The notes: generated by a model from the letters alone, not told the origin. A stretch of 64,000 nt of DNA from Candidatus Latescibacterota bacterium (GCA_964291625.2 OZ220089.1:32001-96000); one strand, 5' to 3'. Positions 4,144-44,891 are shown, numbered from the stretch's first letter. Numbers and translations: made by a program.

Positions 4144-5636
4144 TCGGCGCCTCCCGCCGCCGCCGCGGCCTCCGCCCCGACCCGCGGACCGGTGAAGGAG
4201 CGGAAGTACATGGGCCGCCGGAGATCGTCGACACAGCCGGCATCGAGGTTGTCGACCCCGGCGTCCTCGAGGAACCGGGCGATGAGCCTGGGCACGCAGC
4301 CGTAGACCGAGGCCCCGTGGGCGGCGCCGGGCACGATCACGTGGAGCGAGTTCGACAGGTGCCGGGCCACCGCCTCGCCCCAGCGCGGCGGCGTCACCGG
4401 GTCCAGCCGTCCGGACAGGACCAGCACCGGCTTGTCGGAGACCACGGGGTCGTGATAGCCCGGGGGCAGCTCCCCCCGGGGCCAGAAGTCGCACACCGGC
4501 CCCCACATGTCGAGGACCGCCGGGCCCAGGAAGGGCTCGGCGGCGACTCCGCGGCGGTCCTCCTCGGTCAACCAGGCCACGTCCTCGGCGCACAGGACCG
4601 AGAACAGGAGGGGGACGTTCATCTCGCTCACGCCCTCCATCAGCGGCTCCGAGAGGGCCAGCAGGGGCGCGTAGTCGCCGCCGTGGGCGCGCTCGATCAC
4701 CAGCGGCAGGAGGCGCGTGGTCTCGGCGTCGTACAGGGCCGCGCGCAGGAGGAACAGGACGTGCCGGCGCCCCAGCTCGAACTCGACGACCTGCCCGGTG
4801 CGGGGGTGGGGCACGGCGACCTGCTCGGGGGCCTCCTCGAGCCGGGCGAGCAACTCCTCGTAGCGGCTCCGCACCCGGGGGAAGGCCTCGACGCAGTCGG
4901 GGTCGGCCTCGCAGTCGGCGAGCATCAGCTCCACCGAGCGCCGGGCGTCCTCCCCGATGTGCAGGGGCATGCGCATCCCCGTGGGAGCGACGCCGTCGAG
5001 GACGATGGCGCGCACGCGCTCCGGGTGGCGGCGCAGGTAGACCAGGGCCGCGCGCGTGCCGTAGGACCCCCCCCACAAGTTGATCCGCTCGTAGCCCAGG
5101 GCGCGGCGCACGTCGTCGAGATCGTCCATCGCCGCCGGGGTGGTATACCGACTCGGGTCGGCGTCGAAGGCCTCTAGGCAGCCGCGCAACTGCTGCACCG
5201 GGAGGTCCAGGTCGAAGTTGTAATAGGTTGAGTCGGCGTCGATGTCGTCGCAGCGGAGGGGGCTCAGGTCGCCGGTGCCGCGCTGGTCGACGAGGACGAT
5301 CTCCCGGCGCTCGCGCACCCGGCGCAGGCCGACCTCGGCGACGCGCGCCAGGGAGCTGGCCGGCATCCCCGGTCCGCCGGCGAGGAGGAAGAGGGGGTCC
5401 GGCGCCGCCCCGCGGCCGAGGGCGGGAAGGACGATCACCTTGAGTTCGAGGGTGCGTCCCCGGCCGGACTCCCTGTCCTCGAAGACCTCGAGACGGCCGC
5501 ACTCGGCGCCGCCCACGTCGACCTCGTCGGAGCAGGGCCGCAGCTCCAGGGTGCGCTCCGCGGCGCCCAGGGGAGCGGCGACGAGCAGGGCGGCCAGCAG
5601 CGCCGGCAGCCGCCTCGCCGGGGTGGGCCGGGACAC
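4140..5636 (-). CDS. secreted alpha/beta hydrolase (TAP-like peptidase)
   Basis: Signal peptide, GGPG, DQRGTG, GGSYGT, DPVTP...H motifs. Confidence 0.85.
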   Translation of the reverse strand: MSRPTPARRLPALLAALLVAAPLGAAERTLELRPCSDEVDVGGAECGRLEVFEDRESGRGRTLELKVIVLPALGRGAAPDPLFLLAGGPGMPASSLARVAEVGLRRVRERREIVLVDQRGTGDLSPLRCDDIDADSTYYNFDLDLPVQQLRGCLEAFDADPSRYTTPAAMDDLDDVRRALGYERINLWGGSYGTRAALVYLRRHPERVRAIVLDGVAPTGMRMPLHIGEDARRSVELMLADCEADPDCVEAFPRVRSRYEELLARLEEAPEQVAVPHPRTGQVVEFELGRRHVLFLLRAALYDAETTRLLPLVIERAHGGDYAPLLALSEPLMEGVSEMNVPLLFSVLCAEDVAWLTEEDRRGVAAEPFLGPAVLDMWGPVCDFWPRGELPPGYHDPVVSDKPVLVLSGRLDPVTPPRWGEAVARHLSNSLHVIVPGAAHGASVYGCVPRLIARFLEDAGVDNLDAGCVDDLRRPMYFRSFTGPRVGAEAAAAAGGAE

Positions 5637-12150: not shown

Positions 12151-12354
12151 GCTGGACGGCGGGAGCCGCTCCGACGGCGCCAGGCTGCTGTCGACGGCGA
12201 GCCCGGCGGGCTCGGCGAGCTTCCTGGCGGCTCCGGTCCGCGAAGGACGGTTGCCCTCTTCGGCTGCCGGGGTACCGGCGGATCCGCGACGCTCGGACTC
12301 GGTTCCGCCGGCCCGGGCGGCCTGCTCTGGCCGGGTCGGGATCGACCGGCGGTG

Positions 12355-13086
12355 TTACGGCGACGGCAGGGAGACGCGCAGGTGGCCGGGAGCCCCGAAG
12401 TGGGGCGAGGCCTTCAACCCGAGGCCGAGGAACAGTCCCTGCCGCGCCCAGACGACCAGGGGTCCCGCCTCCGGGGTGCGCAGGTCCACGGCTCGCGCGT
12501 ACCCTCGCCGCGGCGCCGGGAAGGGGCCCGGGACACCCGGCTCGGAAGGACCCGAGGAGCCGTACTCCACCGGGGCCCGGGACACGCCGGTGAGCACCAC
12601 GTCGCCCCCCAGCCGCGCGATCCACAGGGACAGCCGCAGAGTCGGGTGCAGGCGCTCCCACTCGCCGCGCAGCTCCGGGGTCCGGAATCCCGCCTCCGGG
12701 AAGTACGTCATCGCCACGCCTCCCCCCGCCAGCAGCAGGATGGGAACCGCCGCCAGGAGCAGCAGGGCCCGCCGCGGGGAGGGCAGGCCGAAGGCCAGGG
12801 AGAGGGCTCCGAAGAGCACCAGGCCTCCGGCCAGCAGCCCGCCCGCCAGCGCCGTCCATTCGGCGTTCGGGTAGCGCTGCAGGATGGCCAGCTGCACGCG
12901 CCCGGTGACCACCAGGGCCGCCGCCAGGCCCAGCCCCAGGCGCAGCAGGCACCCGGGCAGGCGGGCCAGCGCGACGAAGGGGGCCGCGCCCGGGCGCCGC
13001 GCCGGCGGGGCCGAGTCGAAGCCGCGGGCGGAGCCGGCCTCCGCGAGCCCCCCCGGGACGGGACGCACCTCCTCCACGGCGCTCAC
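12355..13086 (-). CDS. 3-TM membrane protein with degenerate peptidase-M15-like C-terminal domain
   Basis: GTGA overlap with upstream gene; three hydrophobic helices; LHPTLR...AVDLRT...HLRVSLP. Confidence 0.55.
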   Translation of the reverse strand: MSAVEEVRPVPGGLAEAGSARGFDSAPPARRPGAAPFVALARLPGCLLRLGLGLAAALVVTGRVQLAILQRYPNAEWTALAGGLLAGGLVLFGALSLAFGLPSPRRALLLLAAVPILLLAGGGVAMTYFPEAGFRTPELRGEWERLHPTLRLSLWIARLGGDVVLTGVSRAPVEYGSSGPSEPGVPGPFPAPRRGYARAVDLRTPEAGPLVVWARQGLFLGLGLKASPHFGAPGHLRVSLPSP

Positions 13087-14510
13087 GAGCCGCTCCCGGG
13101 CGGGGAACCGCTCCCCCCGCGGTCGCGGGCGTCGAGGCGGTCCAGCTTCTCGCTCAGGGCGATCATCACGTCCTGGGTGTCGGTCATGCGCGACTCGAGG
13201 GCGGAGAGGCGGTCGCCGAGGCCCGAGGAGTCCGGCTGGGTCCGGCGGCGGGCCACGTAGACCGCCGCCAGGCCGACGGCCAGCCCCAGCAGGCACCCGC
13301 CGAGGAGCACGAGCCAGTCGTCGCGCCCGTAGGAGTCCCCCCGCAGTTCCCGTCGCACGGCCTCCAGCAGTTCGTCGTCGCCGCGAGGACTGACGTCCCC
13401 GCTCATCGCACCGCCGGGCGATCGCCACGGCACCGTCCTGTAGTCCCAGGTGGCGGGATCCGGAGCATCGGTCCCGAGGATCCGCGCATCGGCCGGGGCG
13501 ATGGCGCCGGCCGCCTGGTCCAGCCTCCGGGCCAGCGGGTGGGAGTGGGGCCGGGACCGGCCGGCCACCGATCTCTCTATGGCCGAGATCCAGACATCCG
13601 GATGATCCCTCAGCCAGGCCTCCAGGTAAGCCTCCATGGCCTCGGCGTCATACCCCGCCGACCAGTCCTCGGGGGCCAGCACCAGACGGCCCACCCGGCG
13701 GTCGCCCATCATCTTGACGGGGACCTGGGGCCCCCAGGGCACCCAGGAGGCGGTCTCCTCGGCCAGCAGGCGGCCCATGTGGGAGGAAGCACGGTACCCC
13801 GGGGGCGGGCCGTCGCCGTCGACGACGACCACGTCGAAACCGATCATCCCGCCGCCCTCGAGGGGGACCGCCCGCCCGGGGGCCGGGTTCGCCAGCGAGC
13901 GGCCGTAGCGCGGATCGGTCCGGGGAGGGGGCGGGTTGGAGGACCGCACCTGCACGCCCCACTCGTAGGTCGTGAGGTCGCCCTGGCGCTGCCAGGCCCC
14001 GCGCGACCTCCTGTCGATGCGGAGGTTGTGGTGGACCCCTCTGCGGTCGAAGGCGGGATAGGTGGCCTGTCCCGGCACGAGAGCGTACTGGATCGGAGGG
14101 TGGTCCTCCGACACGAGCCCCGAGACGTAGATCTCGCAGGCGTCGGTCCGGGAGACGCTGCTGTCGACCGGATAGAGGATGTCGTCGCGCACCTCCACGG
14201 CCACGTAGAGCAGCTGCTCCCCGGGATCGTACGCGACCCGGAAGGAGGGGCTGAGGTCGCGGCTGGTGGCCAGGTCCGTCCCCTCGGTGTCGGTGGGACC
14301 GTAGACTCCGAACTCGTTGCGGATCGGCAGGGCCGGCATCTCCCGCGGCCAGTCGGACAGATCCCCGTCGACGGTGATGCCGGAGATCGGCAGGGCCAGG
14401 GCCAGGTCCAGGTACTCGGGCAGCTCCGCCCTCGCGGCCAGGGGCGGTCCCGCAACGCTCAACCCCGCCAGAACGACGGCGAGATGCAGGGGTGGGCAGG
14501 GTCGAGGCAT
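13083..14510 (-). CDS. exported CBM9-like sugar-binding domain + TM + coiled-coil tail
   Basis: Signal peptide; ITVDGDLSDWP, FRVAYD..LYVAVEVRDD, IGFDVVVVDGD; one TM; tail TDTQDVMIALSEKLDR. Confidence 0.7.
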   Translation of the reverse strand: MPRPCPPLHLAVVLAGLSVAGPPLAARAELPEYLDLALALPISGITVDGDLSDWPREMPALPIRNEFGVYGPTDTEGTDLATSRDLSPSFRVAYDPGEQLLYVAVEVRDDILYPVDSSVSRTDACEIYVSGLVSEDHPPIQYALVPGQATYPAFDRRGVHHNLRIDRRSRGAWQRQGDLTTYEWGVQVRSSNPPPPRTDPRYGRSLANPAPGRAVPLEGGGMIGFDVVVVDGDGPPPGYRASSHMGRLLAEETASWVPWGPQVPVKMMGDRRVGRLVLAPEDWSAGYDAEAMEAYLEAWLRDHPDVWISAIERSVAGRSRPHSHPLARRLDQAAGAIAPADARILGTDAPDPATWDYRTVPWRSPGGAMSGDVSPRGDDELLEAVRRELRGDSYGRDDWLVLLGGCLLGLAVGLAAVYVARRRTQPDSSGLGDRLSALESRMTDTQDVMIALSEKLDRLDARDRGGSGSPPGSGS

Positions 14511-14527
14511 GGCTGTCCTCCGGGCGG

Positions 14528-14896
14528 TCAGGCCAAGTGTCCGTATCGGCGCCGGTCCAGCTTGTCGGCCATATCTATCATGACACCCTGAAGATCGGTC
14601 AACTGCCGGTCGATGCGGTCCATGCGCCCCCGCAGCTCCTCCGACCGGGATCCGGCCGCGGCCTCGGCCGGCATCCATTCCGAGATCCGCAGGCCGCCGG
14701 CGTCGGTGAAGGCGCCGCAGACGATGAGGATCAGGTCGACCAGGGACCAGAGGCCGAACCCTCCGAGGGTGAGGACCATCAACAGGCCGGTGCCCATCTT
14801 GCCGACGTAGAACCGGTGCGCGCCGATCCAGCCGAGGAAGAAGCAGAGCAGCGCCGCCGCCAGGCGCGAACGAGTGGAGGACCCGGCGCCGGTCAT
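14528..14896 (-). CDS. TM2-domain protein with coiled-coil tail
   Basis: RSRLAAALLCFFLGWIGAHRFYVGKMGTG (TM2); tail TDLQGVMIDMADKLDR. Confidence 0.9.
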   Translation of the reverse strand: MTGAGSSTRSRLAAALLCFFLGWIGAHRFYVGKMGTGLLMVLTLGGFGLWSLVDLILIVCGAFTDAGGLRISEWMPAEAAAGSRSEELRGRMDRIDRQLTDLQGVMIDMADKLDRRRYGHLA

Positions 14897-15624
14897 CGGG
14901 AACCCTCCCCCCTCGCCTCGCCGCGGGGGCGCAGGGCGGCCAACTCTTCATCGACCCGCCGGCGCATCTCGAGTTCCTCGAAGCGGCGCCCGAGGACGCC
15001 GTCCTCCCCGAGGAGGGTGCGGCGCGCCTCGGCCGAGGCCTCCCCGGCCACGTGGGCCAGCTCCAGGCGCTGGCGCATGCGGTCGAACTCGTTGCGGTTG
15101 TGCTCCAGGCGCTGCCCCAGGCGGTCGAACTCGGCCGCCGGATCGCCGTCGAGATCGTCGCGCCGGCAGCCCACCTGGCGGCTGGCGCGGATGCGCGCGA
15201 TCAGGGCGGCCTGGCGGTTGCGGGCCTCCTCCAGCTCCTGGCGCAGGGTCACCAGCTGACCCCGCAGCTGCGAGGCCGTCCGGCGCCCCTCCTCGAGGGC
15301 CGGCTCGATGTCGTCGGCCGCCTGGTCGCTGAGCACCTTGCGGGCCAGCACCTGGCGGGCCAGCTCCTCGTCGCCGGCATCCAGGGCCTGGCGGGCCCGG
15401 CTCTCCAGCCGGCGGCTGCGCTCGCGGTGCTCCTCCTGGTCCTTCTCCAGCCGGCGCTGGCCGGCCACGGCGGCGCCGGTGGCGCTGACGACCCGGTCGA
15501 CCTCGGCCTCCATGTCGCGCACCATCTGGCGCACCATCCTCTCGGGATCCTCCAGGTGATCGAGCAGGTCGTGGACGTTCGACCTGACGATACCGGTGAT
15601 CCGGGACAACGTCGATCTGACCAT
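14893..15624 (-). CDS. pspA: PspA/IM30 family protein
   Basis: RITGIVRSNVHDLLDHLEDPERMVRQMVRDME; GDEELARQVL; long coiled coil ending VDEELAAL. Confidence 0.9.
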   Translation of the reverse strand: MVRSTLSRITGIVRSNVHDLLDHLEDPERMVRQMVRDMEAEVDRVVSATGAAVAGQRRLEKDQEEHRERSRRLESRARQALDAGDEELARQVLARKVLSDQAADDIEPALEEGRRTASQLRGQLVTLRQELEEARNRQAALIARIRASRQVGCRRDDLDGDPAAEFDRLGQRLEHNRNEFDRMRQRLELAHVAGEASAEARRTLLGEDGVLGRRFEELEMRRRVDEELAALRPRGEARGEGSR

Positions 15625-15667
15625 CTCTGCCTCCGATTCGCTCCCGCTGGGTTGTGGGTGCCTTCTG

Positions 15668-15683
15668 TGCAATTCGGGTGCCA
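15668..15683 (-). promoter_or_regulatory. sigma54 -24/-12 promoter of pspA operon
   Basis: Minus strand TGGCACCCGAATTGCA, 44 bp upstream of the ATG. Confidence 0.85.
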
Positions 15684-15774
15684 CCGCCTCCACCCGTTGC
15701 TGGAAACGGTGTTCAAGTTGCTGTCATGCAGTCTGTTGCAAAGATCACCGGATGCCTGTCGGGAGATGGGGAAT

Positions 15775-15810
15775 CGGCTGATTCCGCCATCTCGATGGCG
15801 GGTCTCGCCA
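15775..15810. promoter_or_regulatory. tandem enhancer (UAS) sites, PspF-like
   Basis: CGGCTGATTCCGCCA (15775-89) and TGGCGGGTCTCGCCA (15796-810), 21-bp period. Confidence 0.6.
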
Positions 15811-15907
15811 CCGGGCGGCGGACAGGGGAAGGGGGGGACGAGACCACCCGGGGGCTCGCCTCCCCGTCAGGCCACCGCCCCCGCCCGGCGGCCGGCTCCG
15901 CGCCGGA

Positions 15908-16102
15908 TCAGCCGGGGGACCCGGCCGGATCCAGCGTGCCCCGGGCCCGCCGCTTCTGCACCCAGGGCGTCTCCACGCCGTACTTGCGGCACAGCCGTCC
16001 GAAGCTGCGCAGGGTGATGCCGAGGGCGGCACAGGCCTCCTGGTTGCTCTTGTACATGCGCGCGACGCGCTCGATCGTCGCCTTGTCGAATCCCCGATTC
16101 AC
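15908..16102 (-). CDS. small stand-alone Fis-type HTH protein (64 aa)
   Basis: GGAGGGAG RBS + GTG; YKSNQEACAALGITLRSFGRLCRKYGV resembles the bEBP C-terminal HTH. Confidence 0.7.
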   Translation of the reverse strand: MNRGFDKATIERVARMYKSNQEACAALGITLRSFGRLCRKYGVETPWVQKRRARGTLDPAGSPG

Positions 16103-16168
16103 GGCTCCCTCCTGGTGAAGGATGGACGCCGGGGCCGGTCCCCGGCGGGTGATGTCGAGGACGGGTAC

Positions 16169-16184
16169 AGCAAGGCCCGTGCCC
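16169..16184 (-). promoter_or_regulatory. sigma54 promoter of the small HTH gene
   Basis: Minus strand GGGCACGGGCCTTGCT. Confidence 0.7.
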
Positions 16185-16250
16185 GCCGCCGCGGGCAGCC
16201 GCCGCCAGAGAGCGGGACAGGAGAGGAGACGCCGGAGAGCGTTGCCGCGG

Positions 16251-16285
16251 TGGCCGCATCCGCCACCGTCCGGCGGCAGCCGCCG
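16251..16285. promoter_or_regulatory. tandem UAS sites
   Basis: TGGCCGCATCCGCCA + CGGCGGCAGCCGCCG, 20-bp period; near-identical block at 44857-44891. Confidence 0.65.
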
Positions 16286-16312
16286 GGAGCGGAGGTCCGC
16301 GAAGGGGGCTGG

Positions 16313-31695: not shown

Positions 31696-31711
31696 TGCAA
31701 TTCCCGGGCCA
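31696..31711 (-). promoter_or_regulatory. sigma54 promoter of the glucan cluster
   Basis: Minus strand TGGCCCGGGAATTGCA; IHF-like AAGCAAGGAGTTG at 31741-31753. Confidence 0.8.
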
Positions 31712-31921: not shown

Positions 31922-34900
31922 TCAGCGGGGCCGCTCCAGGCCCAGCTTCTTCATGCGGCTGCGCAGGGTGGAGGGAGGCAGGCCGAGGGCCTCGGCCGCC
32001 CCGCCCTCGCCGCGTACGTGCCAGTTCCGGGACTCCAGGACCCGCCGGATGTAGCGCCGCTCGAACTCCTCCAGGGGCAGGATCTCCAGGTCCCCGGACG
32101 GCTGCGGCGCCGCCTTCAGCCCCAGGTCGCCGACCGTGATCCGGGGACCGCGGCAGGCGATGACGGCGCGCTGCAGGGTGTGCTCCAGCTCGCGCACGTT
32201 GCCCGGCCAGGGCTGGGCCTGCAGCACCGCCAGGACCTCCGGCGCCAGGGGGCCGATGCGCTTGTCCAGGTGGGAGGCCATGCGCTCCATGAACAGCTCC
32301 GCCAAGGCCGGGATGTCCTCCTTGCGGTCGCGCAGCGGCGGCAGGCGGATGGGCAGCACCCGCAGGCGGTAGTAGAGGTCCTCGCGGAACTCGCCGTCGC
32401 GGACCATCTGCTCCAGGTCGCGGTTGGTGGCCGCCACCACCCGGGCGTCCGACCCCAGGGTCCGGCTGCCGCCCAGGCGCTCGAAGGTGCCGTCCTCCAG
32501 GAACCGCAGCAGCTTCACCTGCGCCTCCAGGGGCATGTCGCCGATCTCGTCGAGGAAGAGGGTGCCCCCCGCCGCCAGCTCCACCTTGCCGAGCTTGCGG
32601 GCCAGGGCGGTGGTGAAGGAGCCCTTCTCGTGGCCGAAGAGCTCGCTGTCCACCAGGGTGGCGGGCAGGGCCCCGCAGTTGACGTGGATCAGGGGGCCGT
32701 CGCGGCGGCCGCCGAGGGCGTGCAGGGCCCGGGCCGCCAGGCCCTTGCCCACCCCCGTCTCGCCGAGGATGAGCACGGTGAGGTCGGCCTCGGCCGCCTC
32801 CATGAGCCGCGTCTGCACCCGCTGCAGGGCGGCGCTGCGGCCGGTGAACTCGACGCCGGCGGCGTCGCCGCCGAGGGCCGCCGTCAGAGCGGCGATGCGC
32901 GGGTCGGGCTCGACCGAGACCGGGACCTGGGCGACGGCCGAGTAGTTCAGGTCGCGGTCGACGGCGCGCACCTGGAAGGTGTACTCCCCCTTCGGCAGGT
33001 CCCGGTAGTAGGCCCGCATGCGCCGCGTCGCCGGCCGCCACTCCGGGTCGTGCCCCTCGAGGCGGACCACGTAGAGCATGTCCCGGGGATGGGTGGAGAA
33101 GCTCACCCCCTTGTACTCGAACATCACCGGCCGCCCCGCGGACAGGACCACCGCCGCCGGGGACTCGAAGACCTGGTCGGCCACGACCTGCACCAGGCGC
33201 ACCCGGGGCGGGTTCCGGCGCGGCCGGTAGCGGACCAGGGTGCCGAGGGCGGTGGCGAACCAGAAGGTGCCCTCGCGGTCCTCGAGGATCTGCAGGACCG
33301 GCCCCATCTGGGGCAGCTTGATCGTCTGGAACAGCCGGCCGTCGTGGTGGACGACGCCGCCGTCGGTGCCCAGCCAGAGATGGCCGCGGCCATCCTCGAA
33401 GAGGCAGCGGATGCGGTTGCTCGGCAGGCCGTCGTCGGTGGTGTAGTTGCGGAACCGGGTGCCGTCGAAGCGGCCCAGGCCGTTCTGGGTGGCGATCCAC
33501 AGGTGGCCGGAGCGGTCCTCGAGCAGGTCCACCACGCGGTTGTCGGGCAGTCCGTCTCCTGTGGTGTAGAGGGTGGCGCCGCGCTCCGGGTGCCAGCGGC
33601 CGATCCCCTTGCCCCGGCCGAAGGGGTTGTGCGTCCCCAGTGCGTACCACAGCTCGCCGTCGCGGGTGGCCACGAGGGCGCCGATGTGGTTGAAGGGGTC
33701 CTCCTTGGCCTCCTCCCGGAAGACGGTGACGAAGCGCTCTCCCTGGCGCCGCACGATCTGCAGCGGGCTGGCGAAGAGCTCCTCCCGCCGCGCCGTGGTC
33801 CCGTTCTCCCACTGGCCCACCAGCAGGCGGCCGTCCCGGTCCTGGGCGACGGCGCTGACGCCGGCCTCGGCGAAGCCGGCCTCGGCCCCGATGCGCTCGA
33901 AGCGGGCGCCGTCGTAGCGGAAGAGACCGTTGCCGCCGCCGAGCCACAGGTCGCCGCCGTCGTCCTCGTAGATGGCGAAGCAGCTGTTGAGGTCGAGCCC
34001 CTGGCCGGCGCCCACGAACTCGTAGCCGCTGCCGTCGAAGCGGGCGACGCTGCGCGCCGTCAGGCTGAGGAAGGGCGAGGAGAAGCCGATCCAGATGCGG
34101 CCCGTGCGGTCCTGCACCATCCGCGAGATCTCCGCCTCGCCCTCGGGATACTCCTCGGCGCGCTCGAAGAGCCCGACGCCGAAGGCGTCGTAGAGGGCGA
34201 CGCCGCCGCCCCAGGTGGCGAACCAGTGCTGCCGGTCCGGGTCCTGGTAGACGGCGTTGACCACCGGGTAGGGCAGCCCGTCTTCGGTGGTGACCCGGTC
34301 GAAGCCTTCGCCGGTCTGGTAGAGGGCGCCGCCGGAGGTGCACAGCCACAGGCGGCCGTCGCGGTCGGTCTGGATCTTGCGCAGGTTGCCCGGCAGGTCC
34401 ACGGCCACCGGGTCGAAGGAGGCGCCGTCCCACCTCCAGATCCGTCCTCGGTCCCCGGCGCGGCCGATCCACAGGCAGCCGGAGGGATCCTGCCCGACGG
34501 CGTAGCAGCTGGCGTCGGGGGGCAGGCCCTCCCGCTCCCCGTAGCGGCAGAAGCTCCGGCCGTCGTAGCGGACCAGGCGGTCGAAGGCGAACCAGAGGTC
34601 GCCACCGGCGTCCTGGGCGATCCCCCAGCACTGGTTGGTCCAGCGCGGCGAGGGAGGCTCTCCGTAGCGCTCCGCGTAGCGCGGGACCAGGTCGTGGAAC
34701 TCGTCGCCCTCGAAGTACCCCAGGGTCCCGGTGCCGGCGCACCAGAGGCGCGCCCGGCTGTCCTCGAAGAGGAACTGCACCTGCCGGCCGGCCATGCCCT
34801 CGCCGCCGGGCTGGTGGAACCGGCGGCCGTCGTACCAGCAGACGCCGCTGAGGGTGGCGAACCACAGCCGGTCGCGGCCGTCGCGGAGGATGGAGAAGAC

Positions 34901-44055: not shown

Positions 44056-44712
44056 CTACTCGATCCTGACCATCCTGCGGACCTGCATCTCACGCCCCTG
44101 GTGCAGCCGCACGACGTAGACGCCGGCGGCGACCGGTCGTCCATCTCCGTCCCGGCCATCCCAGCCGAGCCGGTGCTCACCAGCGGCCAGGGGACCGCTC
44201 CACAGGTGGCGCACTGGCTGCCCCGAGATGTTGTAGACCGTCAGACTCACGGCGACTCCGCCAGCCATGACCGTAACCGGGATGGTCGTGGCCGAGTTGA
44301 ACGGGTTGGGATAGTTGGCCCCGAGGGCGAATGTGGTGGGTGCGGTCGTCCCCTCCGCTATGGTCGTGGCCGCGCCTGAACCACATGTGGAGTACACGTA
44401 CACGCATCCCGGCATACCGGGATGGTGGTAGTAGTGGTCCTGCCGACGATGGTGATAGTGGTCCCGCCAGAACTCGACGGGCAGGTGGTCTTCCCAGTCG
44501 CATGGAAGCGAGGTCATGCGGGAGCCGCTGCTGCCCTCGGCGATCCCGTGGCAGTCATCGGCCCGCGTCCGGTCGGCCATGGAGAACACCACCACCATCG
44601 CAGCCGCTACCCTGCCCGGCGACCGCAGAGCCAACCACCCGGCGCGGCTCCGGGCGGCCGCCGGCGATGCCGGGGGCGTGTTCGATCGTCGTTCGTGGAA
44701 TCCCCGATTCAC
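44056..44712 (-). CDS. His/Tyr/Cys-rich protein with FlgD-Ig C-terminal domain (possibly chimeric)
   Basis: WRDHYHHRRQDHYYHHPG; NYPNPFNSATTI...WDGRDGDGRPVAAGVY. Confidence 0.6.
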   Translation of the reverse strand: MNRGFHERRSNTPPASPAAARSRAGWLALRSPGRVAAAMVVVFSMADRTRADDCHGIAEGSSGSRMTSLPCDWEDHLPVEFWRDHYHHRRQDHYYHHPGMPGCVYVYSTCGSGAATTIAEGTTAPTTFALGANYPNPFNSATTIPVTVMAGGVAVSLTVYNISGQPVRHLWSGPLAAGEHRLGWDGRDGDGRPVAAGVYVVRLHQGREMQVRRMVRIE

Positions 44713-44774
44713 GGCTCCCTCCCGGTGTATGGCACGCCAGCCCCGATCACTGGCGGTGCGCTCGAGGAGCTTGA

Positions 44775-44891
44775 AGCAAGCCCCGTGCCTCGGCCTCCGG
44801 GAGGCCCTCCCGTAGCTTGCCCTGGGGAGATCCGTCTGAGAGGGTGGTGTCGAAGGTGGCCGGATCCGCCACTACCCGGCGGCAGCCGCCG
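44775..44891 (-). promoter_or_regulatory. sigma54 promoter + tandem UAS, copy of the 16169-16285 module
   Basis: AGGCACGGGGCTTGCT (44775-90, minus); TGGCCGGATCCGCCA + CGGCGGCAGCCGCCG (44857-91); same promoter-UAS spacing as 16.2 kb. Confidence 0.7.

Follow-up and report, generated by a model that had tools for sequence, protein, structure and literature searches.

A pspA operon with a predicted sigma-54 promoter and tail-bearing membrane partners in Candidatus Latescibacterota, a likely arm of a two-locus Psp regulon

Membrane repair by Psp/ESCRT-III proteins is ancient, and to our knowledge the way in which damage is sensed for this repair is understood in few model bacteria only. In Escherichia coli, PspA inhibits the activator PspF, and in Bacillus subtilis the LiaIH-LiaGFSR system uses a sigma-70-type promoter, the NarL-type regulator LiaR and a membrane-bound kinase with its partner LiaF. 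Activation of E. coli pspA involves two upstream activating sequences (UASs) and is assisted by IHF, and residue W56 of PspF is needed for control by PspA, from which the W56A variant escapes (PMC3709507). The survey of Ravi et al. 2024, which also names the Lia system, describes Psp contexts with regulators made of an NtrC-AAA and a helix-turn-helix (HTH) part that bear extra N-terminal domains (PMC11237479). Here, we analyzed a locus at positions 12,355 to 16,285 of a DNA stretch of 64,000 nucleotides (nt) from a Candidatus Latescibacterota bacterium (GCA_964291625.2 OZ220089.1:32001-96000; "the window" is this whole stretch), in which five minus-strand genes form a 64-amino-acid (aa) HTH gene followed by a unit of pspA, a TM2 gene, a CBM9-fold gene and a fifth gene (gene 5). 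On balance, we regard this locus as the accessory arm of a Psp regulon that spans two loci and depends on sigma-54. A preliminary description of the same stretch had proposed a non-canonical sigma-54 Psp-like envelope-stress system; its conserved sigma-54 Psp-type unit without recognisable PspB and PspC stood, and what it missed were a second locus, probable control through a receiver domain and a tail shared by the membrane partners.

The pspA1 locus, its promoters and its enhancers

The source genome (5.9 Mb in two contigs, 69.5% G+C, 94.99% complete) carries the following features at this locus, given in window coordinates:

16251-16285, minus strand: tandem enhancer (UAS) of the HTH gene, CGGCGGCTGCCGCCG, 5 nt, TGGCGGATGCGGCCA (minus-strand reading)
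16169-16184, minus strand: sigma-54 promoter of the HTH gene, GGGCACGGGCCTTGCT, one mismatch
15908-16102, minus strand: HTH gene, 64 aa (gene call)
15775-15810, minus strand: tandem enhancer of the pspA operon, TGGCGAGACCCGCCA, 6 nt, TGGCGGAATCAGCCG, with the second site 21 bp on
15668-15683, minus strand: sigma-54 promoter of the pspA operon, TGGCACCCGAATTGCA, perfect match
14893-15624, minus strand: pspA1, PspA/IM30 family, 243 aa (PF04012)
14528-14896, minus strand: TM2-domain membrane protein, 122 aa, with a C-terminal tail (PF05154)
13083-14510, minus strand: CBM9-fold protein, 475 aa, with an exported domain, one transmembrane (TM) helix and a cytoplasmic tail
12355-13086, minus strand: gene 5, 243 aa, membrane protein (three TM helices) whose C-terminal residues ~130-243 form a LAS/M15-like domain

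Measured against the consensus TGGCAC-N5-TTGCW, the window contains four sigma-54 sites with at most one mismatch, where 0.79 are expected, and none of 100 shuffles reached this number. The promoter before pspA, initially described as near-consensus, proved to be a perfect match and one of only ten in the whole 5.9-Mb genome; another of these ten precedes the second pspA gene (pspA2) at G000:C2:461090, and one more an HTH-gene paralogue. Wherever an orthologous locus extends to this region, a perfect site stands ahead of pspA. The HTH gene has, as had been proposed, its own sigma-54 promoter and the same tandem sites, and both recur in relatives: GGCAC-N5-TTGC with a varying spacer stands at the promoter position in the seven relatives examined, G013 having GGCAT. 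The genome encodes rpoN together with 19 sigma-54 activators.

The upstream sites, first noticed as tandem TGGC-N7-GCCA-type motifs, resolved into TGGCG-N5-CGCCA pairs that are conserved in relatives. Before pspA in eight further loci, the half-sites and their 20-21-bp register are kept and the spacers vary, and the enhancer block of the HTH gene was found in all seven relatives (kept in G002, G006, G004 and G007; recognisable in G001, G013 and L077). Upstream of pspA2 lies TGGCGGGAGCCGCCA, followed by a TGGCGG half-site 20 bp on. Genome-wide, the perfect palindrome TGGCG-N5-CGCCA occurs in 43 copies, of which only two (2/43) have one of the 67 sigma-54-like sites at a distance of 400 bp or less, in both cases a pspA promoter. 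A looser scan for tandem sites, which misses the weaker second site of pspA2, gave 17 matches, three of them at sigma-54 promoters; the remaining 14 were taken as chance. The combined UAS and sigma-54 module, a search for which had been suggested in the preliminary description, also stands before the second pspA operon, and the looser scan added a fourth unit near 44.8 kb of the window:

44775-44891, minus strand: fourth regulon promoter, with an enhancer at 44855-44891 and the sigma-54 site AGGCACGGGGCTTGCT at 44775-44790
44056-44712, minus strand: gene of a His-rich protein of 218 aa, C-terminal domain of FlgD_ig / sorting type

The enhancer at 44855-44891 is near-identical to that of the HTH gene, and the first five codons of the gene at 44056-44712 are identical to those of the HTH gene. 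Conservation between the upstream regions of the two genes is limited to the enhancer, the promoter and the ribosome-binding/start block; window positions 44056-44891 hold a partial duplicate of the HTH gene control region, placed before the gene for the His-rich protein.

The pspA unit consists, as first described, of four co-oriented and tightly coupled genes. The pspA stop and TM2 start codons share ATGA, the CBM9 stop and gene 5 start codons share GTGA, and the gap between the TM2 and CBM9 genes measures 17 nt and includes a GGAGG. A lack of synteny in relatives had been named as a possible refutation of the proposed system; instead, the three downstream genes were found syntenic with pspA. 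The order pspA, TM2-tail, CBM9-tail and gene 5 is kept in G001, G002, G005, G006, G007, G008 and G013, the last being a member of another genus, with 43% identity of its pspA. The contig of G004 stops after the CBM9 gene, the G003 locus is partial, and in G009 the locus is degraded, with broken TM2 and CBM9 genes. The HTH gene lies upstream of pspA in G001, G002, G004, G006, G007, G009 and G013 and was not found in the 2.2 kb of upstream sequence in G005; G003 and G008, for which upstream sequence is nonexistent, are left out of this count. A distant metagenome-assembled genome (L077) carries HTH, pspA and TM2-tail only, and its HTH gene abuts pspA.

Two further features were recorded around these genes:

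15690-15770, minus strand: less G+C-rich spacer from enhancer to promoter, identified by eye and very A+T-rich in L068
12255-12354, minus strand: G+C-rich hairpin past the last gene (folding z -2.62; 2/200 shuffles fold equally well)

The spacer, which has less G+C-rich counterparts between enhancer and promoter in the orthologous regions, may be a DNA-bending site. The hairpin, on which the neighbouring genes converge, may mark the end of the operon; a simple scan of 12255-12354 found no terminator-like site with a T-run. A second hairpin, after the HTH gene, was considered as a terminator and dropped, its folding being no better than that of shuffles (z +1.14). The scan for sigma-70 promoters and terminators gave no promoter-like site and a sole terminator-like site that falls within a gene, and Rfam gave no match at E up to 0.1.

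Several observations on related sequences and on the occurrence of the locus are added here. In G007 and G001, a gene for a tiny hydrophobic peptide with its own sigma-54 promoter lies between the HTH gene and pspA (L064 ~4230-4420; L067 ~4280-4540). In G007, this gene is preceded by a TGTCCG-N4-CGGACA palindrome, which also occurs (G000:C1:1137095-1137200) before a sigma-54-driven HTH paralogue at C1:1137009; the palindrome suggests a second regulon with another activator. A sigma-54-like site with one mismatch (TGGCCCGGGAATTGCA, window 31696-31711) is located shortly downstream of the gene for a large sigma-54 activator, whose AAA+ domain is at window 32348-32845 (G000:C1:64348-64845). Most public sequencing runs with near-identical pieces of window 12300-16300 are labelled sponge metagenome and come from several studies; their shares of this part are small (0.18-0.34), except that one run, a possible source of the sequence, reaches 0.99.

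The membrane partners and their shared C-terminal tail

The second locus lies at G000:C2:460.8-466.0 kb (L027). Its operon runs, in this order, from a sigma-54 promoter through pspA2, a 156-aa membrane protein, two small membrane proteins and a kinase to a regulator; the kinase consists of TPR and HATPase parts and has no membrane segments. Using tblastn, the C-termini of the TM2 and CBM9 proteins of the window were found to match the two small membrane proteins of this operon over a tail of ~28 residues, with the consensus R-x3-[IL]-[ED]-x-R-[LM]-T-D-x-Q-[DE]-V-M-I-x-L-S-E-K-L-D-R. Within the window, a hidden Markov model (HMM) of the tail places it as follows:

14552-14635, minus strand: tail of the TM2 protein, residues 88-115 (tail HMM)
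13137-13220, minus strand: tail of the CBM9 protein, residues 431-458 (tail HMM)

The tail HMM detects exactly five proteins in the genome, four of them in the two pspA operons and the fifth a paralogue of the CBM9 protein (61% identical). Predicted to be helical, the tail comes after the last TM segment and an arginine run and should therefore be cytoplasmic. It is present in 102/168 genomes of a phylum sample, in three families only (51/75, 21/22 and 29/31; 0 elsewhere), and all 16 tails among the matches listed from nine genomes lie on the same strand within 2.5 kb downstream of pspA; a few further tail matches in those genomes stand outside this tally, to which G143 contributes no entry. 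PspB (PF06667) and PspC (PF04024) have no Pfam match in the window's genome, given its completeness of 94.99%, which extends to the whole genome the earlier remark that no pspB/pspC-like gene is recognisable here; PspC was detected in 3/131 genomes of a class sample and in 0/10 of the window's genus. The tail thus marks the membrane proteins of PspA operons in a clade without PspB and PspC, and, as judged by sequence, the feature uniting the membrane partners is this shared, predicted cytoplasmic tail.

It is possible, although we regard it as doubtful, that the tail is a new PspA-coupling module that replaces PspB/PspC across three families and can be grafted onto unrelated envelope-facing proteins to recruit or trigger PspA. 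A structure prediction of PspA1 with the TM2 tail (residues 76-122) gave scores of 0.01 and 0.02 against a mark of 0.32, which indicates nothing either way. An alternative, which we consider unlikely, is that the tail serves as kinase input rather than as PspA anchor, with the tail proteins signalling to the soluble TPR kinase and PspA acting independently at the membrane. The kinase has no membrane segment and contains TPR repeats, a peptide-binding fold; its gene directly follows the tail-protein genes, and tail and operon type are found together in three families. However, L077 and the window locus have tail proteins beside pspA and far from the kinase, and the evidence does not separate kinase input from PspA docking, both of which could hold.

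The improbable case that the TM2, CBM9 and LAS-like genes are no more than envelope-maintenance cargo induced together with pspA, with neither a physical nor a signalling link to PspA, draws on the unrelated secreted protein that the regulon also drives and on the TM2 family at large: of 80 TM2 loci in all bacteria, nine have pspA within 7 kb, all nine in this clade, and 71, from other organisms, do not. This fits poorly with the overlapping stop and start codons, with a gene order kept down to 43% pspA identity, and with the occurrence of one tail on otherwise unrelated proteins, almost only in pspA operons. TM2 as a general partner of PspA was rejected on the basis of these 71/80 loci.

The individual proteins were assigned as follows. 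The pspA1 product matches PF04012 over residues 6-232 (110.9 bits, cut-off 33.9) and scores below the cut-offs of the PspA and LiaH equivalog models, and the TM2 protein matches PF05154 over residues 8-56 (69.2 bits, cut-off 27.9). For the CBM9 protein, previously called an exported carbohydrate-binding membrane protein, the CBM9_1 model (PF06452) gives 18.3 bits on the 475-aa copy in the window, below the cut-off of 23.4. A CBM9 fold is nevertheless supported by its orthologues, which match CBM9_1 in 9/9 cases at E up to 0.1 (best 1.8e-8), and by the predicted structure, for which CBM9 modules are the best Foldseek matches (7nwn, E 7.6e-9, TM-score 0.70 by target length; 1i82, E 3.3e-8), in a model of moderate quality (mean pLDDT 54.4, core blocks higher). 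Several relatives carry two tandem CBM9-tail genes, and some orthologues have one in-frame stop (L067 5920-7335; L037 1098-2390; G002:C60:9458-10825); these may be pseudogenes or assembly errors.

Gene 5 had been read as a degenerate M15 peptidase. It has no Pfam or NCBIfam match, no Pfam M15 match was found in 8/8 members of its family, and its profile gave only a chance match (E 1.3) against PDB sequences. A profile search for the family gathered 223 representatives at E up to 0.001, and the family consensus, taken from a 75-sequence alignment, reads LHPxLR...SLHY..DGYVHAVDLRT...RHxGTADHLHVS. The family motif SxH...AxD...HxH is lost in the window's copy, which differs from the consensus at S186, H188, Q192, H198, D234 and H237, among others, has P188, R198 and R237 in place of three conserved histidines, and keeps H147, D201, H229 and H235; orthologues in G005, G008, G001 and G013 keep the motif and the one in G007 keeps HxH only. 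The predicted structure (pLDDT 85.6) shows three TM helices and an alpha/beta domain, which should be periplasmic because of the positive-inside rule. The best fold matches of this C-terminal domain are ShhN (Z 7.2), the zinc-peptidase domain of VldE (Z 7.1) and the L-Ala-D-Glu peptidase of phage RB49 (Z 6.8), and Foldseek matches to the Hedgehog/DD-peptidase fold are weak (E 0.2-1, probability 0.84-0.92). The family motif, lost in the window's copy, and the weak fold matches support gene 5 as a probable degenerate member of a LAS/M15-like family.

A PspF-like regulator and the proposed two-locus control

The search for a PspF-like activator, likewise suggested beforehand, led to the regulator of the pspA2 operon, which combines a PF00072 receiver domain (62.6 bits) and a PF00158 AAA+ domain (220.4 bits) with an HTH_8 domain below the cut-off (18.7 bits, cut-off 22). 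It is the best match of E. coli PspF (K-12 record) in the genome, with 269 bits and 48% identity over 313 aa, the next of the 19 activators reaching 236 bits. The recognition helices of the two proteins are near-identical (LGLTYDRFRHLLRKHG in the regulator, LGLTYHQFRALLKKHQ in PspF), and an alanine aligns with W56 of PspF. Two divergently transcribed sigma-54 activators without an N-terminal regulatory domain (355 and 326 aa) are encoded at G000:C1:1599444-1600511 and 1600765-1601745; the PspF model TIGR02974 scores 258 and 235 bits on them and 353 bits on the receiver-domain regulator. Since the two match PspF more poorly, the receiver-domain regulator was assigned as the probable activator of these promoters. 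Because it carries a receiver domain and adjoins a soluble TPR kinase, induction probably proceeds via phosphorylation and not only via release from PspA, that is, through a two-component pathway rather than through PspF/PspA antagonism alone.

From the observed genes, promoters, enhancers, synteny, homologies and tail distribution we infer a two-locus model, in which every binding step and the sensed signal are given conditionally. A PspF-like enhancer-binding protein would bind the tandem TGGCG-N5-CGCCA sites ~65-130 bp upstream of the sigma-54 promoters and drive four units: the HTH gene, the pspA1/TM2/CBM9/LAS-like unit, the pspA2 operon including the regulator itself, and the gene for the secreted His-rich protein. 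With its receiver domain and the soluble TPR histidine kinase beside it, this activator would be induced by phosphorylation. The clade may use tail-ended membrane proteins in place of PspB and PspC; in the window, the tail has been added to the TM2 protein and to the CBM9 protein, a type-I membrane protein whose CBM9-fold domain is exported. Through this tail, the envelope-facing proteins could be coupled either to the TPR kinase or to PspA itself. Having lost its catalytic-type histidines, the presumably periplasmic LAS-like domain would act as a binding module and not as an enzyme. On the basis of the domain folds, the synteny and the shared tail, the partner proteins might, as first proposed, take over the role of PspB/PspC and read the glycan/peptidoglycan status.

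It is very improbable that control is instead classical, with one of the two activators that lack a regulatory domain (G000:C1:1599444-1600511 or 1600765-1601745) being inhibited directly by PspA and the receiver-domain regulator serving its own operon only: both candidates consist of AAA+ plus HTH with at most ~30 residues ahead of the AAA+ domain, as in PspF, but they match PspF less well (202 and 177 bits versus 269) and its model less well, as given above, have recognition helices unlike that of PspF and lie near no pspA; a single type of enhancer precedes pspA1, pspA2 and the HTH gene, and the pspA2 operon includes the gene for the receiver-domain regulator.

Under the two-locus model, the co-induced HTH mini-protein, with a PspF-like recognition helix, might modulate the same enhancers, in the simplest form as a feedback competitor. 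Compared with the 19 enhancer-binding proteins that the genome encodes, the mini-protein is closest to the PspF-like regulator, whose DNA-binding tail it matches with 37% identity; BLASTP against such DNA-binding tails gave E 3e-5. This Fis/RWP-RK-like family comprises 148 clusters, all unnamed; 51/60 members match RWP-RK (PF02042), all below the cut-off (best E 2.7e-4), and 1/60 matches HTH_8. Comparison of the HTH profile with PDB sequences gave only matches with E above 1, and protein-atlas searches returned unnamed clusters only, plus one HTH_8 lead with a score of 0.85. The family (15908-16102 and six paralogues) resembles the plant/algal RWP-RK domain (LGIT.RSF.RLCRKYGI) in sequence, of which it may be a bacterial relative.

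Several points weigh against the proposed regulon or parts of it. The assignment of the activator is based on homology, on the shared enhancer and on operon membership, its binding being putative, and two other enhancer-binding proteins have the PspF architecture without a regulatory domain. The six HTH paralogues have near-identical recognition helices and stand mostly in unrelated contexts, which makes a role of the mini-protein specific to this enhancer doubtful and its function the least certain part of the system. Evolution is fast for gene 5 (pairwise dN/dS 0.48-0.65) and for the CBM9 gene (0.44-0.62), with lower values for TM2 (0.16-0.45) and pspA (0.24-0.40); strong codon bias may inflate these ratios. 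The fold scores of gene 5 are only middling (Z 6.8-7.2 over 93-98 residues). As regards expression, contigs of one RNA-library run include fragments of pspA, of the CBM9 gene, of gene 5 and of the sequence ahead of the HTH gene, and one contig spans the CBM9/TM2 junction; such contigs cover parts of the operon, neither prove transcription nor show a start site, and uncovered bins are uninformative. Finally, an hhalign comparison of 34 tails with E. coli PspB gave a score of 17.4 (P 0.0055, probability 6.6%), which exceeds all 30 shuffles (maximum 12.7) as well as the values for PspC (11.2) and PspD (6.7). The tail as a PspB homologue was rejected, this match being too weak.

Further observations concern the PspA genes outside the window, of which the genome encodes three in total, pspA1 included. 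The 156-aa protein of the pspA2 operon (L027 3291-3761 = G000:C2:461790-462260) has membrane segments and a winged-helix-like C-terminus with a weak HTH_IclR match (E 0.0076), and it is kept beside pspA2 in the class-level relatives G011, G029 and G034. The region of the third PspA gene (G000:C2:69001-73406) encodes, as read from translations only, a small acidic protein, an oxidase-like protein and a spermidine-synthase-like membrane protein, and resembles a polyamine-linked PspA context described in PMC11237479.

Comparison with known Psp systems

In our literature search, no paper was found that links PspA to Gemmatimonadota or to a bacterial TM2 domain. TM2, Gemmatimonadota and Latescibacterota are unmentioned in the main texts of two large Psp surveys, whose supplements may list such neighbourhoods; in the main text of PMC11237479, the terms 'TM2', 'Gemmatimonad', 'Latescibacter' and 'peptidase' have 0 occurrences. 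The variants of Ravi et al. 2024 are similar in that NtrC-like regulators with extra N-terminal domains occur in PspA contexts, whereas in the text of that survey these domains are ACT or PAS and the hosts Gammaproteobacteria (PMC11237479).

Like LiaIH-LiaGFSR, the loci described here would link a PspA homologue, probably co-transcribed with a candidate small membrane anchor protein, to two-component control, but the Lia promoter type, the regulator LiaR and the membrane-bound kinase with LiaF are different; a comparison limited to Pfam did not relate LiaI to the tail proteins by sequence. The gene 5 family resembles the LAS/M15 zinc peptidases and the Hedgehog N-terminal domain in its motifs SLHY...HAVD...DHLHVS and in the fold matches of the C-terminal domain, with the middling Z scores given above. 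Gene 5 differs from LAS/M15 proteins in having no Pfam or PDB sequence match and three N-terminal TM helices, and its copy in the window lacks the three conserved histidines.

Among the closest counterparts is also E. coli PspF/pspABCDE, with which the locus shares the PspA effector and the sigma-54 promoter. In the E. coli psp control region, AATTCGCCA and AATTCGCTA stand 20 bp apart and 66-100 nt upstream of its TGGCAC; the sites predicted here are likewise two, ~20 bp apart, and have the same right (CGCCA) half-site. Similar, too, are the activator, at 48% identity to PspF and with its near-identical recognition helix, and the predicted autoregulation through the same enhancer, so that, by sequence comparison, the regulatory core is homologous to PspF/sigma-54/UAS. 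In contrast, PspB, PspC, PspD and PspE were not found, the activator is encoded at the other locus, contains a receiver domain and is paired with a TPR kinase, an alanine aligns with PspF W56, and the membrane partners are the TM2, CBM9-TM and LAS-like proteins, plus the mini-HTH protein. Of the defining features of a canonical PspF/PspABC system, PspB, PspC and a PspF that is free of a regulatory domain and controlled through W56 are missing.

We know of no function for the TM2 domain, from bacteria to humans, and this locus provides a first genomic handle on the bacterial TM2 proteins; if the tail does couple to PspA, this would be the first functional link for the TM2 domain, namely to ESCRT-III-type membrane repair. 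The locus also offers a defined pair of enhancer and regulator, and the short tail motif predicts candidate PspA partners from sequence. Compared with the known systems, a PspF/sigma-54/enhancer core appears to be retained far outside the Proteobacteria, with the input swapped for a TPR kinase and a receiver domain, and the membrane partners swapped for tail-bearing TM2 and CBM9 proteins and a putative pseudoenzyme resembling peptidoglycan peptidases.

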